Source of the DNA: Bacillota bacterium
Lineage (GTDB): Bacteria > Bacillota > Clostridia > Lachnospirales > Lachnospiraceae
Length of the DNA: 64,000 nucleotides
Direction of reading: 5' to 3'
Assembly: GCA_023398375.1 (NCBI GenBank)
Contig: JAEWSH010000133.1
Span: 244,260 to 308,259, forward strand
Position 1 is the first letter of the stretch; each line of letters begins with the position of its first letter. Positions 12,925 through 58,330 of this stretch are shown here, piece by piece. A program made the translations under genes and the position numbers. The notes under the pieces are model-generated. The model searched no databases, was not told the DNA's origin, and worked only from the letters and a program-made list of their open reading frames with translations.

Positions 12925-13172
12925 GCGCGCCCTTTTCATGTTTATGAGTTTATCACATTTTAGGATTATAAAAATAGCGTGAGAATTATTTTCCAACAGA
13001 AGACACGTTTGCACTCGATTGCCGCTCATAACGGTACATAAGTTCGTGACAGATTTTATCTGCCACGAACTAAGTACCGATGGCGTCAAAACGGTCTCTT
13101 TTTGGAATATAATTCACACGCTATTCTTTTTAAGTTATTGATGTGATAAACATTCTGGCTTTTTGAGGGCGC
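12925..13172. repeat. Element C: ~250-bp imperfect nested palindrome at the convergent gene junction
   Basis: Paired arms are GTTTATCACAT/ATGTGATAAAC, AATAGCGTGAGAATTAT/ATAATTCACACGCTATT and CCAACAGAAGACACGTTT/AAAACGGTCTCTTTTTGG. The core is GGTACATAAGTTCGTGACAG-ATTTTAT-CTGCCACGAACTAAGTACC. Confidence 0.75.
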
Positions 13173-26314: not shown

Positions 26315-26565
26315 AATATTTGAATTCGTCATTTTGCACAATTTACGCTAATGTATATTGATACACAACATAGTTCATTCGCAACGCTCCCGCTTGGATT
26401 TAGTACGCAGTGGTACATAAGAGCATAAAATACATGCTCTAAGTACCAGCGGCTTCATACAGTTGCTCACCAAACTATGTTGTGCATCAATTTTGATAAG
26501 GTAAGTGTATGTGCAAACTGACGAAGCCAAGTTTTCTGATAAACTAATGACATTTGAATCTTGTA
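26315..26565 (-). repeat. Family-B nested-palindrome element, copy 1 (inverted relative to copy 2)
   Basis: The reverse complement of 26321-26535 aligns by eye to 47190-47404 at roughly 90 % identity. The terminal inverted repeats are degenerate. Confidence 0.8.
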
Positions 26566-31793: not shown

Positions 31794-32950
31794 AAAAGAA
31801 TCTTTTACTCATAGTTCCAATGCTGCATCAGGGCGGATTTGAAAGAGTATGCATACGGACAGCACGAATGCTTGCGGATGAATGCAATGTTTCTATTCTG
31901 ATCTTTAGTGACGAGGATATTGCCTTTGACATAGAAGGACTGGATATTATAAATATAGATATCAAGAGCCGGGAGGGCGGATTCCGTAAAGCATGGAATC
32001 TGTTACGGCGGATACAGGCAGTAAAACGGATCAAAAAAGAGAAACACACACACATTTCTTATAGCTTCGGAGTGACAGCAAATCTTGTAAATGTATTTGC
32101 CATCGCACAGGACAAGTGTTGGGTTGGACTTCGGGGCTATACGGATCTGTATTCCAGGACGCTGAAAACAATCTGCAGCAGGGCGGATAAGATCGTCTGC
32201 TGCTCAAAGGTGATAGAAGAGGCAGTGAAAAAACAATTTACGGGGAAAGATGTTGCGAATATTCCCAATTCTTATGATATTGATTTGATTAATTCGCAGG
32301 CTGAGGAAGATATCCCGCAGGAGGATCAATACATATACGAGAATGGATATCGTGTATTGACAGCTGTCGGAAGAGAGGATGATCTGAAGGGATACTGGCA
32401 TCTGATCAGGAGCTTTGCCAAAGTAGTCCGGTCAGTACACGATGTGCGCCTCCTCATTATAGGGGAAGGGGAATATCTGGAGGACAAAAAATTCGCGGAG
32501 GCTCTTGGAATCGGGGATAAAGTGTTTTTTACCGGTGTCAGAAGTAATCCTTTCCCATATGTAAAGAAGGCATGTGCCTACATCTTATCGTCACGTAATG
32601 AAGGATTTCCCAATGCACTGGTAGAAGCCATGGCGCTGGGAAAACCGGTAATGGCTACGAATTGCCAGTCAGGACCTGCGGAGATATTATTTGAGGATTA
32701 CCGAAGAGCTGCAGACGATTCCATTGCTTATGATGCGGATTACGGTGTGCTGCTGCCAATGGTGATATGGCATAAAGATCTGCATCTGGAAGGTATCGAC
32801 GATGCAGAAGCGATTATGGCAGATGAGATCATCAAGATGCTGAATGATGAGAATAAACAGGCGAAATATGCTGCATTAGCTAGAAAAAGAGCAGAATATT
32901 TTTCTGATAAAAAGTATAAAGATTTATTACTTAGGAACATAATGGATTAA
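31790..32950 (+). CDS. GT4 glycosyltransferase
   Basis: VKKNLLLIVPMLHQGGFERV, SSRNEGFPNALVEAMALGKPV. GTG 31790 forms a GTGA overlap with the YfhO stop; the track's alternative is ATG 31739. Confidence 0.75.
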   Translation: MKKNLLLIVPMLHQGGFERVCIRTARMLADECNVSILIFSDEDIAFDIEGLDIINIDIKSREGGFRKAWNLLRRIQAVKRIKKEKHTHISYSFGVTANLVNVFAIAQDKCWVGLRGYTDLYSRTLKTICSRADKIVCCSKVIEEAVKKQFTGKDVANIPNSYDIDLINSQAEEDIPQEDQYIYENGYRVLTAVGREDDLKGYWHLIRSFAKVVRSVHDVRLLIIGEGEYLEDKKFAEALGIGDKVFFTGVRSNPFPYVKKACAYILSSRNEGFPNALVEAMALGKPVMATNCQSGPAEILFEDYRRAADDSIAYDADYGVLLPMVIWHKDLHLEGIDDAEAIMADEIIKMLNDENKQAKYAALARKRAEYFSDKKYKDLLLRNIMD

Positions 32951-32995
32951 GTACACAATAGATAGGAAACCTAAGAAGAGAGAGAATCAAATTTT

Positions 32996-34948
32996 ATGAA
33001 AAAAAAGATTGGAATTCAAATACTGCCTATATTGGGATCTATGACAGCAATTGGAATTCTCGTTTCCCTGTTAATATTGGGACTGCATCAGATCCAGAAT
33101 CAGTTAAAGAAAGATTTTCTAGAAAAGCATGAACTTTCGGAAGGTATGACGGTTACTGTAAAGGGAGTGAATTCTTCTGAGGATATCGTATGGTGGCAGG
33201 ATGAAGGAGAAGATACGGATGGCGCTGCTTATTTTTTTCTGCCATCTTATGCTCCGACAGATGCGATAGAAATCAATTGCAACTATGTGGAACAAGTGAT
33301 CATGGAAAGTGATAATGGAACGCAGTTTGTATTGTCCGCCGGAAAAAATGAAGTACCGGTTCAGATCGGTACCAGTTATAAGACTACATTTATAGATGGA
33401 GAGGGACAGATTACAGAAAGTAAGGAAATAGTATTTCTGCGTTCTGCATATTTACCGGCCCTATATGTAAATACGGAATCCGGTTCATTAGAATACCTGA
33501 ATGAAGATAAAAATAATAAAGAGACCGGCGATATGGCTTTATATGACGAAGATGGAATCCTGCGCTATAAAGATAAGTTAAAGTCTGTTTCCGGCAGAGG
33601 AAACCAGACCTGGGACTGTGAAAAAAAGTCTTATGGGATAAAGCTGCGTCATGCAGCTAATCTGCTGGAAATGGGAAAAGCAAAGAATTGGGTACTGTTG
33701 TCCAATGTATATGATGAATCTTATATTCGTAATAAGATCACTTATGAAATGGCAAGAAATGCAGGAATGGAAGAGACGGCAGAACTGCAATATATAGACC
33801 TTTACTGTAATGGAGTGTATGCAGGTATGTATCTCTTGTGTGAAAAGGTAGAGCTTGTCAAAGGAAGAATCAATATCACAGGTCTGGAAGAGAAAAATGA
33901 AGAAGTAAATGGTAAAAATTTAGAAGAAGCAGAAGATTATCTTAGCCCAGACGGAACCAGGAAAGGAAAACTGCTGATCAATAATCCGGAAGATATTACA
34001 GGTGGATATCTGGTCGAACACGATTACGGCGAAAAGTATGGTGCTGAGATAAGCGGATTTGTGACCCCTAATAATGACAAATATGTCATAAAAAATCCAA
34101 AGTGTGCTTCAAAGGAAGAAGTTAATTATATTGCAGATTTATTTCAACAGATGGAGGCAGCTGTTCTATCTGACGATGGGTATAATCACGAGACCGGAAA
34201 ATATTTTACGGAATATATCGATCTGGAATCTTTTGCAAAAAAATATATAGTGGAAGAAATATCCAAAAATGACGGGGGCGGTACCACCAGTGCATTCTTT
34301 TATAAAAGACCTGACCGCCAAGACACACTGATCTATTGCGGGCCGGTATGGGATTATGATAAAGCTTATGGGCGCGTTAAAAATCTGGATGCAGACCCAT
34401 ATAGCTTAGGCTATGAGACGCTGCATGATTCGGGAACAGATTTTTATTATTTTTTATACCAGAAACCAGAGTTTCAAGAGGCTGTCAAAAAATATTATAA
34501 GGAATGCTTTTCGGATTATCTGGGAGAATTACAATACGACGGAATTGATGCAATCGTGAATGAGATACGTTTTTCTGCTATTTTGGATGGTGTCAGATGG
34601 AAAAGTATGCGCAGTGATGATTTTGTGGCATATCAGGATACAAATTATGAAGCAGTCGCTGCATATATCAAGGAGTTCATTACGGATAGAAAAGAATTTT
34701 TAGATGCTGTCTGGATTCAGAATAAAGAGATCGCAGATGTACATATTGTTAATAATATCGAAAATGCAGAATACTATTTTGGAGTCATAAAGGGAACAGG
34801 GCTGCCGGCTATGCCGCACAGCAGCATACACGGCTATCATTTTGAAGGATGGTTCATAGAGGGTTCTGATAATATTTACTCAGAAAATATGCCGATCAAT
34901 AAAGATACAACAATCATTGGCAGATGGGTCGAGAAAGAAGATTCGTAA
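32996..34948 (+). CDS. CotH-kinase-family protein with an N-terminal membrane anchor and a C-terminal Listeria/Bacteroides-type repeat
   Basis: Signal-anchor ILPILGSMTAIGILVSLLILGL. CotH core: KKSYGIKL, NWVLLSNVYDESYIRNKITYEMA, LYCNGVYAGMYLLCEKVE. C-terminus: HGYHFEGWFIEG...TTIIGRW. Confidence 0.7.
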   Translation: MKKKIGIQILPILGSMTAIGILVSLLILGLHQIQNQLKKDFLEKHELSEGMTVTVKGVNSSEDIVWWQDEGEDTDGAAYFFLPSYAPTDAIEINCNYVEQVIMESDNGTQFVLSAGKNEVPVQIGTSYKTTFIDGEGQITESKEIVFLRSAYLPALYVNTESGSLEYLNEDKNNKETGDMALYDEDGILRYKDKLKSVSGRGNQTWDCEKKSYGIKLRHAANLLEMGKAKNWVLLSNVYDESYIRNKITYEMARNAGMEETAELQYIDLYCNGVYAGMYLLCEKVELVKGRINITGLEEKNEEVNGKNLEEAEDYLSPDGTRKGKLLINNPEDITGGYLVEHDYGEKYGAEISGFVTPNNDKYVIKNPKCASKEEVNYIADLFQQMEAAVLSDDGYNHETGKYFTEYIDLESFAKKYIVEEISKNDGGGTTSAFFYKRPDRQDTLIYCGPVWDYDKAYGRVKNLDADPYSLGYETLHDSGTDFYYFLYQKPEFQEAVKKYYKECFSDYLGELQYDGIDAIVNEIRFSAILDGVRWKSMRSDDFVAYQDTNYEAVAAYIKEFITDRKEFLDAVWIQNKEIADVHIVNNIENAEYYFGVIKGTGLPAMPHSSIHGYHFEGWFIEGSDNIYSENMPINKDTTIIGRWVEKEDS

Positions 34949-35010
34949 TTTAAATAAAAGTTTCAGATTTTTTCAGAATTTCTTAAGAAGTGGTTTGCTT
35001 GTAGGTTAAT

Positions 35011-47041: not shown

Positions 47042-47175
47042 GTGTTAGAAGAAATTCTAAGCAGCAAAAATACTGTTTAGAATTTCTAAATCTCACACAG
47101 GAAGATGCCTCTTACGAGTCTTCTTCTCACTGATTATTTGTGCCGCTTGTAGCGGCATGTCGGGATGTGTGAAAA
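47042..47175 (+). repeat. Family-A repeat, copy 4 (three stem-loops)
   Basis: GTTAGAAGAAATTCTAAGCAG..CTGTTTAGAATTTCTAAATCTCAC, then GGAAGATG..CTTCTTC, then TGCCGC-ttgta-GCGGCA. Confidence 0.8.
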
Positions 47176-47405
47176 AATTATAGTAGAACTTGGCTTCGTC
47201 AATTTGCACATATACTTACCAAACAAAAATTGATGCACAACATAGTTTGGTGAGCAACTGTATGAAGCGCTGGTACTTAGAACATGTATTTTATGTTCTT
47301 ATGTACCACTGCGTGCTGAATCCAAGCGGGAGCGCGTTGCGAATGAACTATGTTGTGTATCAATATTGTGTAAACGTAAATGTGCAAATTGACGAATTCA
47401 ATATG
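47176..47405 (+). repeat. Family-B nested-palindrome element, copy 2 (full length)
   Basis: Paired arms are GTCAATTTGCACAT/ATGTGCAAATTGAC and TGCACAACATAGTT/AACTATGTTGTGTA. The core hairpin is GGTACTTAGAACAT-gtatttt-ATGTTCTTATGTACC. Confidence 0.8.
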
Positions 47406-47429
47406 TAAAAAGAAAGTCAGGAAGCGGAT

Positions 47430-49369: not shown

Positions 49370-49379
49370 GGTGATAACT

Positions 49380-49563
49380 CAAGTGTCAAAAGCCTACCGC
49401 CGGTATGTACCACTGCGGCTAAGTCCAAGAGGGAGCGTGTTGCGAATGAACTATGTTGTGCATCAATATAATTCATGACAAGTGAAGCGGCTTGCCGGTA
49501 CATCTTGTTGCATAGTGGGTGCAAATTGACGAACTCGAATATAAACATGCTTTTGACACTTCA
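49380..49563 (+). repeat. Family-B element, copy 3, with clear terminal inverted repeats and an embedded element-E copy (49472-49508)
   Basis: TIRs are CAAGTGTCAAAAGC (49380-) and GCTTTTGACACTTC (-49562). The interior matches the right half of copy 2 (GTACCACTGCG...GCGAATGAACTATGTTGTG). The E hairpin replaces part of the element. Confidence 0.75.
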
Positions 49564-49642
49564 ACCAATATTTAGTAAAATATAATGTACTGCAATGAAA
49601 GCGTATCAGTATATAAGAAATTGAGATACAAGGAGATATACC

Positions 49643-51385: not shown

Positions 51386-51447
51386 TAACAAGTTTGCTTT
51401 GGAAGAACGCTAAACCGTTCTTCTATTGTGAGAAGCCTCCTATAAAG

Positions 51448-51503
51448 ATTCAAGTGTCAAAAGCTTATCATAGAACTTGGCTTTGTCAATTGACGAATTC
51501 AAA
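51448..51503 (+). repeat. Family-B element, copy 4 (minimal remnant)
   Basis: TTCAAGTGTCAAAAGCTTATCATAGAACTTGGCTTTGTCAATTGACGAATTCAAA. The left TIR and outer arms remain; the whole interior is deleted. Confidence 0.7.
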
Positions 51504-56944: not shown

Positions 56945-56979
56945 CGGTCATGCAGGTGAGAAAATAAGAGGAATTGCGA

Positions 56980-58167
56980 ATGAAATTTTTAAAAAATAAA
57001 GGAAATATCATTAATTGCTTTTTCTATATCGGGTTCCTGACCGAAATCATGATCGTTCTGATCGATAAAAGTGCTTATATCAATCCGATAGAAGGAACCA
57101 TGTTCCGTATCGCATTTTTACTATTTGGGTTGAAGGTACTATTTACGCGGTATAGCAGGAAAGAATGGCTTCTTATCATTGGGTTCTGTGTGTTGGGAGT
57201 AGTCTCTTATCTGTATGCGGACAGGGATGAGGTACTGCGTATCGTCATGTTCGTGGCAGCATCCAAGAATATTTCACTGCGGAAGATGATGGCGATAACG
57301 TTCTATACCGTACTGACCGGAATCCTATTGCTGATGCTGCTTGCAGTAATGGGCGTATTTGGGACCATGACACTGGATGTCGATTACGGAAGAGGCGGAG
57401 TCGAATCCAGATATTGTATCGGATTAGGGCATCCGAATGCACTGCATTGCATGATATTTACCACCCTGCTGCTGGGCATGTATTTATATCTTGAAAAGAT
57501 GAAATGGAATGTATTTCTCCTATTATTTTTGGGAAATATCGGATTATACACGTTGACCACTTCTAAAACGGGACTGCTGATCATAACAGCCACATTATGT
57601 GTGGGATTGCTGATCCGCTATGGAAGAGGTGTCCGGGACAGCCGATGGTTCTATCGGGCGGGAATCACAGTTTTTACCGCATCGGTCCTATTTACACTTG
57701 TGATGGCAAGATTCGGGTATACACAGGGACCTTTCAGAGGGCTGGATATCTTATTGAATAACCGTATCAGCTATGCGATTCTCTGGGGCGGCATGTATAA
57801 ATGGAATCTTTTTGGACATCCGGCGCTAGTGGAGACAGATTATTTTGATATGGGACTGAGCCGCCTGTTTTACTGGTATGGTTATATACCGGCTGCAGTA
57901 TATTTGCTGGTAAATTTATTTATGTTATTCTATTTTTATAAAAAGAAAGATGCCAATGCGGTCCTGCTGATCATTATGTTAACTGGCTATACAACAGTAG
58001 AAGCGCATATTATATCGGTGTATCTTGCAAGAAATTATATCCTGTTATTATTGATCGGTACATGGAGCCGGATCTTTCATGTGACAGGACCGCAGGAAGA
58101 CTATATTTGGGAAGTACTATGGAAGATATTGTCTGGTAGGATTAAGGTGTCAAAAGCTTATCACTGA
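56980..58167 (+). CDS. Polytopic membrane protein, Wzy-like polysaccharide polymerase candidate
   Basis: About 11 TM segments and no soluble domain. It has a GLGHPNALH loop. The last 7 codons and the stop lie inside repeat B5. Confidence 0.45.
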   Translation: MKFLKNKGNIINCFFYIGFLTEIMIVLIDKSAYINPIEGTMFRIAFLLFGLKVLFTRYSRKEWLLIIGFCVLGVVSYLYADRDEVLRIVMFVAASKNISLRKMMAITFYTVLTGILLLMLLAVMGVFGTMTLDVDYGRGGVESRYCIGLGHPNALHCMIFTTLLLGMYLYLEKMKWNVFLLLFLGNIGLYTLTTSKTGLLIITATLCVGLLIRYGRGVRDSRWFYRAGITVFTASVLFTLVMARFGYTQGPFRGLDILLNNRISYAILWGGMYKWNLFGHPALVETDYFDMGLSRLFYWYGYIPAAVYLLVNLFMLFYFYKKKDANAVLLIIMLTGYTTVEAHIISVYLARNYILLLLIGTWSRIFHVTGPQEDYIWEVLWKILSGRIKVSKAYH

Positions 58168-58258
58168 ACTTGGCTTCGTCAATTTGCACATATACTTGCA
58201 AAACAAAAATTGTGCAAATTCACGAATTCAAATATATAAACAAGCTTTTGACACTCGA
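58144..58258 (+). repeat. Family-B element, copy 5 (short form with intact terminal inverted repeats)
   Basis: AAGGTGTCAAAAGCTT ... AAGCTTTTGACAC. The interior equals the outer arms of copy 2, with the central ~130 nt missing. Confidence 0.8.
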
Positions 58259-58330
58259 ATCCTGGTAGAATAGAAAAAGAAATAATTGGCAGGTAGATAC
58301 GCAAAAAGCTGCGTAGAAATGAGGAAAGCA

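Follow-up and report, generated by a model that had tools for sequence, protein, structure and literature searches.

What is the long nested palindrome that lies at positions 47166-47408 of this 64,000-nt stretch of Lachnospiraceae DNA (contig JAEWSH010000133.1; the whole stretch is called the window here), and does it shape the glycan locus in which it sits? An earlier sequence-only reading had described it as one of five copies of a "family B" repeat and had proposed a non-autonomous mobile or recombinogenic element, placed at the boundaries of glycan-gene cassettes, which marks and may mediate their shuffling. Genome-wide searches, alignment of orthologous sites and covariation analysis together indicate that family B is very probably a non-autonomous DNA transposon of ~272 bp, or MITE (for miniature inverted-repeat transposable element), whose superfamily was found here only in Lachnospiraceae. 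Judged from the aligned loci, it appears to have inserted into an already assembled glycan operon and to have neither built nor shuffled the locus.

Evidence for mobility comes from the anatomy of the repeat, its target sites and its dispersal in the source assembly (G000), a 5.0-Mb metagenome-assembled genome (MAG). Searches with BLAST and nhmmer for further copies, which the sequence-only reading had suggested, collected 86 loci in G000, confined neither to this locus nor to glycan loci, and this number indicates that the repeats are not due to chance. Nearly all of these loci are intergenic; they comprise ~30 full-length copies, 15 short forms in which both ends survive, and otherwise fragments of one side only. 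The consensus from an alignment of 29 full copies is non-coding and ~272-278 bp long. A potential 38-codon frame in the core was considered as a small peptide and rejected, because 1-nt indels break it in several aligned copies. Terminal inverted repeats (TIRs) are present as proposed, but they had been drawn too short: the true ends lie further out, with GATTCAAGTGTCAAAAGC as the left terminus and GCTTTTGACACTTGAATC as the right one, and in the variant GATTAGGGTGTC.../...GACACCCTAATC both ends change together.

The insertions are flanked by target-site duplications (TSDs) of 7 bp. In Anaerosporobacter faecicola, all seven copies examined are nearly identical and carry perfect 7-bp duplications; the eighth flanking base is mismatched in three of the seven, as well as in several copies of G000 and of G003 (MAG JAEVYY, a genome of the same genus), so the duplication is 7 bp and not 8 bp. 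Among the 15 G000 copies with both TIRs, eight match at no fewer than six of the seven flanking positions, four of them perfectly, and two more match after a 1-nt shift. Insertion targets resemble CTATAAG/CTTATAG and often stand beside a small hairpin motif, GGAAAGTTC..GAACTTTCCTATAA. Many left flanks of family B are themselves small hairpin repeats, either of this type or family-A-like (GGAAGAACG..CGTTCTTC), with the insertion at a CTATAA(G/A) edge; examples are window positions 51386-51446, contig C28 of G003 at ~500-560 and many G000 left flanks. A target preference for hairpin edges may explain the "repeat islands" of the locus.

Seven genomes of the same genus (G001-G007) were used for comparison of orthologous sites. 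In the genomes that align, the glycan locus is collinear with the window at positions 1-1700 and 20000-61900, the stretches that were compared, and each B site was aligned by its flanks. Site 1, between the epimerase and formyltransferase genes, is filled in G000 and G001 and empty in G002, G003, G004, G005 and G007, and the two genes are adjacent in all genomes with the empty site. At site 2, between asnB and GT2, G000 has the full interior and G003 only the right half, while G001, G004, G005 and G007 are empty. At site 3, between GT11 and the ABC exporter, G001 has a full-length copy, G000 a rearranged one and G003 a solo right TIR; G004 and G006 have no element there. Site 4, between the ABC exporter and the next gene, is occupied by a full-length copy in G003, flanked by the 7-bp duplication CTATAAA, and by a 57-bp remnant in G000; it is empty in G001, G004, G005, G006 and G007. 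At site 5, between the Wzy-like and sugar transferase genes, G000 carries a 122-bp form and G003 a left half, and G001 has no element in a flank that is divergent. At every B site the flanking genes are the same whatever the state of the element, in each same-genus genome that aligns there. Empty, full and decayed states within a collinear locus prove insertion followed by decay in situ. Family B shows four of the features by which MITEs are recognized, being a non-coding element of less than 600 bp with TIRs, a fixed-length duplication and many copies with empty orthologous sites, and is best filed under the MITE or structured-intergenic-repeat kind. The idea of a non-autonomous mobile palindromic element is borne out by the TIRs, the duplications, the dispersed intergenic loci and the contrast of empty and filled sites.

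All five copies listed in the sequence-only reading are present in the window, at or a few bases from the positions first given, and the sequence also bears out the nested arm pairs, the series of deletions and the paired change in the stem. The focal copy (copy 2, 47166-47408, + strand) retains the full interior, with the structured core at 47222-47374, and aligns to positions 9-254 of the nhmmer model; it had been called full length, which is correct for the interior but not for the ends, as both TIRs have been lost. It folds as one long nested hairpin, with -93.1 kcal/mol on the + strand (z = -8.5) and -78.8 kcal/mol on the - strand, and R1, a covariance model of the core, scores it at 166.6 bits on the + strand (E 1.9e-40) and 28 bits on the - strand. 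Copy 1 (26315-26560, - strand) lies opposite to the operon, with its core at 26347-26498 (R1 164.2 bits) and a decayed right terminus; like copy 2, it no longer has recognizable termini. The paired change in the core stem is real, with GAACAT/ATGTTC in copy 2 and GAGCAT/ATGCTC in copy 1, and across the family this position shows all four Watson-Crick types (GC 14, CG 11, AU 11, UA 7).

The remaining three copies are on the + strand and incomplete. Copy 3 (49376-49566) keeps both TIRs and has lost the left arm and the left half of the core; it hosts a nested, unrelated hairpin repeat of 37-48 nt at 49461-49508. Copy 4 (51447-51503) is a 57-bp remnant with the left TIR and arm. Its internal deletion starts from GTCAATT as described, with GTCAATT joined to GACGAATTC at an AATT microhomology; in addition to that description, the right end with its TIR is also lost. 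Copy 5 (58140-58261) is a 122-bp short form with both TIRs, in which ...AAAAATTG is joined to TGCAAATT... by deletion between two AAATTG direct repeats; this central deletion stands, with a size of ~150 nt instead of the ~130 nt first given. Only copy 5 among the window copies combines both TIRs with a perfect 7-bp duplication (CTGGTAG, at 58133-58139 and 58262-58268). Its insertion replaced the last codons of the Wzy-like open reading frame (ORF) 56974-58167, changing the ancestral C-terminus ...GRIEKEIIGR* to ...GRIKVSKAYH*, with a stop codon supplied by the element. The neighboring genes agree with the sequence-only reading: epimerase, formyltransferase, AsnB, GT2, GT11, ABC exporter and a Bac_transf sugar transferase.

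Deletion associated with the hairpin, proposed from the series of shortened copies, is supported by full-length orthologues of two damaged copies, in G003 at site 4 and in G001 at site 3. The 15 both-end short forms of G000 have at least 10 different central junctions, with the tip of the hairpin removed symmetrically. At sites 4 and 5 the deletions of G000 and G003 differ; at site 5 the left junction is the same in both genomes and the G003 copy runs past the deletion point of G000, which indicates that the two lineages deleted independently. The variety of short-form junctions and the orthologous comparisons together support palindrome-associated deletion.

The most conserved part of the element is its interior, an asymmetric core of ~150 nt, around which the outer arms diverge between genera. 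A set of 44 non-redundant cores, drawn from no fewer than 15 genomes, was aligned and folded with RNAalifold; compensatory double changes occur in 29 of the 49 consensus pairs. Pairing holds in 96.4% of cells versus 86.6% in shuffles, none of the 500 shuffles reaches any of the observed measures, and sliding the partners, as a control, drops core pairing to 24-43%. In the fold, a closing helix is followed by an internal loop rich in G and A (UGAUGA/GAAU), then by a covarying second helix (GCAAC/GUUGC) and a two-branch junction. The first branch is a long arm, GGUAC-UUAG-(variable 7-bp stem)-GUAUUUU-(stem)-CUUAUG-UACC, and the second is a 2-bp hairpin capped in nearly all sequences by a GNRA tetraloop (GAAA, GAGA, GGGA, GGAA or GCAA). 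The unpaired nucleotides of the core are the most conserved, and the stems covary. The resemblance of UGAUGAG...CGAA to a hammerhead ribozyme was examined and rejected: the motif forms an internal loop between two helices, with neither stem I nor a cleavage-site strand, the positions of C3 and A15.1 are both U, most G000 copies read UGGUGAG, and no Rfam hammerhead match was obtained. A k-turn reading failed on missing helices.

The core is strand-specific. Its + strand gives the better fold in 49 of 53 copies, with a mean advantage of 7.4 kcal/mol, and several of its pairs are fixed or frequent G-U wobbles that would become A-C mismatches on the opposite strand, namely 14-142 (G-U 17), 27-129 (U-G 29, C-G 14), 28-128 (G-U 33, A-U 10) and 68-76 (G-U 43). 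At only 18 of the 53 G000 places does the core strand lie on the strand that is G-rich and carries the majority of genes (p = 0.027), and convergent spacers are over-represented among these places (15/53, 28%, versus 11% of all spacers). No conserved neighboring gene was found at 18 loci from 18 genera.

Searches beyond the source genome placed family B within a larger superfamily. R1 found full-length matches in 49 of 151 sampled Lachnospiraceae genera, often with at least 20 in one genome, these per-genome counts being lower bounds. In a class-wide sample, matches were obtained in two of three further Lachnospiraceae genomes and in none of 146 genomes from ~60 other families. A cross-species scan with a 28-nt core pattern, using one genome per species, recovered the same architecture in A. 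faecicola, Herbinix, Mobilitalea, Lachnoclostridium sp. UBA1308 and many Bacillota MAGs, and the named carrier genera that were checked all belong to Lachnospiraceae. In other genera the core lies inside long, often near-perfect hairpins with differing outer arms; some of these elements have a TG(T/C)CAAAA(G/C)C-like terminal motif and, in two cases, duplications of ~8-10 bp. Tandem arrays of the core, or of its right half, also occur in G003, with periods of 89, 129, ~200, 324 and 398 bp; they lie on contigs C19, C6, C17 and C30 (L043-L047), one of them between cbiM/cbiN-like and acetyltransferase genes. In two other genera, a TwoAYGGAY RNA (L162:1213-1378, 95.8 bits, above the gathering threshold) and a sub-threshold Clostridiales-1-like match (L158:1159-1301) lie 120-200 nt from core elements, and orphan RNA motifs may cluster near core repeats.

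Two further features of the window belong, by their matches to R1, to the same superfamily. "Element C" (12965-13130, - strand), at a convergent gene junction, matches the full model with 88.5 bits (E 2.2e-20) and is a divergent member, and the locus "leader" (363-524, + strand; 77.9 bits, E 1.2e-17) represents a second subfamily. The leader belongs to an inserted block of ~260-559, which G003 lacks and G001 has only in truncated form, and of which G000 contains at least eight further copies; it is thus one more insertion and not a conserved leader. About 21 further divergent core places were found in G000. The same assembly, whose contamination estimate is 9%, contains contig C134 (~29 kb), a near-perfect large inverted duplication with Bacteroidota-like glycoside-hydrolase/SusD-type genes, which probably reflects contamination of the MAG as well as an artefact of assembly.

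The observation that the window contains no transposase holds, and the search for an autonomous partner elsewhere yielded the results that, with three others, weigh against a transposon. Scans of G000 for the TIRs returned solo ends and mini-forms only, and no insertion sequence (IS) with family-B termini; an all-against-all ORF comparison found no multicopy transposase in G000, a MAG from whose assembly IS copies may be missing. The 16 solo-TIR sites examined in A. faecicola are all truncated copies without a mobilizing enzyme. Transposase-family searches covered A. faecicola and genomes G144, G077, G170, G047, G271 and G106, not every family being searched in each; the hits to ISL3, IS1595, DDE_Tnp_1 (IS4/5), IS256, rve and IS66 have no element-like ends, and a search of G144, G077 and G106 for IS66 found none. 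G144, with 20 contigs, 99% completeness and at least 20 copies of the element, has few transposases of the tested families, as do G077 and A. faecicola. An IS6/ISBst12-like IS was considered as the partner (L212, a 1875-bp contig of A. faecicola, and L214-L225). It encodes a 490-aa zinc-finger DDE transposase, whose best hits are IS6/IS240 and IS66, below curated cut-offs, and its termini GGTAGTGTCAAA share a GTGTCAAA core with the family-B TIR. Its duplications, however, are 8 bp long, unlike the 7 bp of family B, and its targets are not AT-rich; searches of three high-copy genomes (G144, G077 and G106) did not find it. It is present in 19 of the 151 sampled family genera (G149 and G170 among them) and in only five of 48 element-positive genera, these five co-occurrences among 19 genomes comparing with 6.1 expected by chance. 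The 8-bp duplication and the lack of co-occurrence led to its rejection. The three other points concern the element itself: it contains no convincing promoter or terminator; in tandem gene contexts the core is co-oriented with the genes 11 times and anti-oriented 22 times; and the junction of copy 5, AAAATTG joined to TGCAAATT, is common to six of the 15 short forms, for which recurrent deletion at AAATTG and transposition of an already shortened form are inseparable.

Four other explanations were weighed, two of which concern the locus itself. That the copies are recombinogenic boundaries, delimiting glycan cassettes and mediating their exchange or inversion, is largely refuted and must now be considered highly improbable, even though every copy lies between genes, copies 1 and 2 are mutually inverted, and the window holds seven core-family members in 64 kb when the 107 places in 5 Mb would predict ~1.4, a comparison made after the fact. 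Across the aligning B sites, G001 and G003-G007, and G002 at site 1, are collinear with the window, and the block between the inverted copies 1 and 2 (26-47 kb) is not inverted in G003. The one clear difference in gene content is the gain or loss of ORF 32996-34948 (650 aa), which is absent in G003, where 37 nt stand in its place (window region 32930-34966), and neither border of this indel has a B copy. Collinearity and an indel without a B copy mean that cassette shuffling is not supported; the sequence-only reading had itself named breakpoints that do not coincide with B copies as telling against it. In addition, members of the family are spread over the whole genome, with a general enrichment at convergent gene ends. 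An equally slim chance attaches to the copies being cis-regulatory RNAs of the glycan operon, such as antiterminators, attenuators or leaders. The "leader" and four of the five B copies run in the same direction as the operon, and one element stands upstream of its first gene. However, the leader block is missing or truncated in relatives, the operon is kept in sister species without B at sites 1-5, the core has been lost from three of the four co-oriented B copies, and the family is dispersed beside unrelated genes; moreover, the core is not co-directional with genes, which speaks against a plain cis function within host mRNAs.

The other two explanations concern the core. It might be a functional structured RNA (a protein-binding, catalytic or processing signal) that serves the element or its host and for which the MITE is only a vehicle, with selection acting on the + transcript, a possibility that deserves attention but is well short of an even chance. 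The conserved unpaired nucleotides between covarying stems, the restriction of tetraloop variation to five GNRA sequences, the pairs fixed as G-U wobbles, the greater stability of the + strand and the retention of the core across a third of the sampled family genera all suit such an RNA. On the other side stand the missing internal promoter and terminator, a core strand that is antisense to its neighbors at two thirds of tandem sites, the lack of a conserved neighbor gene among the 18 loci and of any Rfam match, and the fact that G-T wobbles and tetraloops stabilize single-stranded DNA (ssDNA) folds too. A core that serves as an ssDNA recognition structure for a host-encoded or single-copy recombinase, in the manner of REP/RAYT, IS200/IS605 ends or integron attC, and not as a DDE substrate, is distinctly less probable. 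It would suit the many near-identical copies in G144, G077 and A. faecicola, where no IS has matching ends and transposases of the tested families are few, the conserved interior with diverging arms, and the mild orientation bias relative to the leading-like strand (18/53). However, this bias is weak and opposite in direction to that of IS608-type elements, and regular 7-bp duplications with true TIRs are the signature of DDE-type staggered cuts; HUH/Y1 systems are not known to produce either regular target duplications or true TIRs. A more speculative proposal, ranking between these two and on balance unlikely, is that the core represents a new class of functional structured nucleic acid, RNA or ssDNA, that itself drives or licenses mobility through an enzyme other than a conventional transposase of a multicopy IS. 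Mobility driven by the core would explain why the interior is conserved in a third of genera while the termini diverge, and why dozens of near-identical copies exist without an IS of matching ends.

A non-autonomous transposon remains the preferred reading of family B, and its history in this locus may be sketched as follows. A trans-acting enzyme would insert the element into AT-rich intergenic sites resembling CTATAAG/CTTATAG, and a 7-bp staggered cut would give rise to the observed duplication. Once inserted, the long nested palindrome is unstable, and deletions, often between short direct repeats, take the hairpin tip or one arm, yielding the "deletion series". In the present locus, the element landed in spacers after the order of the operon's genes had been settled. 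The core most likely acts as a single-strand structure, either RNA or ssDNA, needed for the propagation or persistence of the element itself, and the outer arms most likely co-evolve only to preserve the foldback.

One mobile superfamily and its decay products account for families B and C, the "leader" and the repeat islands of the glycan locus, as well as for the altered C-terminus of the Wzy-like protein and for false N-terminal ORF extensions. Such non-coding features should not be read as regulatory or recombination signals. The element is widespread in a dominant gut bacterial family and has no description in Rfam 15 or in the publications that the literature search covered. Rfam 15 gave no match at the gathering threshold in the window, the focal copy having only sub-threshold miRNA-hairpin hits, and at 20 loci of other genera none of its families had a match overlapping the core (E <= 0.01). 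The consensus had no blastn match among PLSDB plasmids or INPHARED phages, and a search of the literature on MITEs or structured repeats in Lachnospiraceae and Clostridia found no specific description.

Among known systems, the REP/REPIN-RAYT repeats resemble family B in being hairpin-forming intergenic repeats without an adjacent transposase and possibly with a single-copy mobilizer. However, REPs are hairpins of 20-40 nt that are tagged by GTAG at the 5' end and make no target duplication, and membership of family B failed on its size of ~272 bp, its TIRs and its 7-bp TSD. Derivation as a MITE from IS6/IS66 (ISBst12) likewise failed, on the 7-bp duplication with its mismatched eighth base and on the lack of co-occurrence. 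BOX of pneumococcus and ERIC/IRU of enterobacteria share with family B imperfect palindromes, compensatory changes and frequent internal deletions or insertions, and their variable number of modules recalls the core arrays of G003 with periods from 89 to 398 bp. BOX and ERIC are not known to have clear TIR or TSD signatures, whereas family B, compared with them by description, has both and belongs to another taxon. There is also a likeness to bacterial MITEs with long hairpin folds as RNA or DNA, namely the Correia elements (CREE/NEMIS) found in Neisseria, RUP from Streptococcus pneumoniae and bcr1 from the Bacillus cereus group, which are likewise small, non-coding elements with TIRs, a fixed-length duplication, dozens of intergenic copies, presence/absence polymorphism and strong foldback. 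The duplication is TA for Correia and RUP and TTTAT for bcr1. By these descriptions, family B is set apart by its 7-bp duplication, its termini GATTCAAGTGTCAAAAGC and the lack of a parent IS among those found. Above all, conservation is the reverse of that in ordinary MITEs: the termini are variable and no transposase is identifiable, whereas the interior, a covarying core with RNA-like compensatory changes, a three-way junction and a GNRA hairpin, has been kept.

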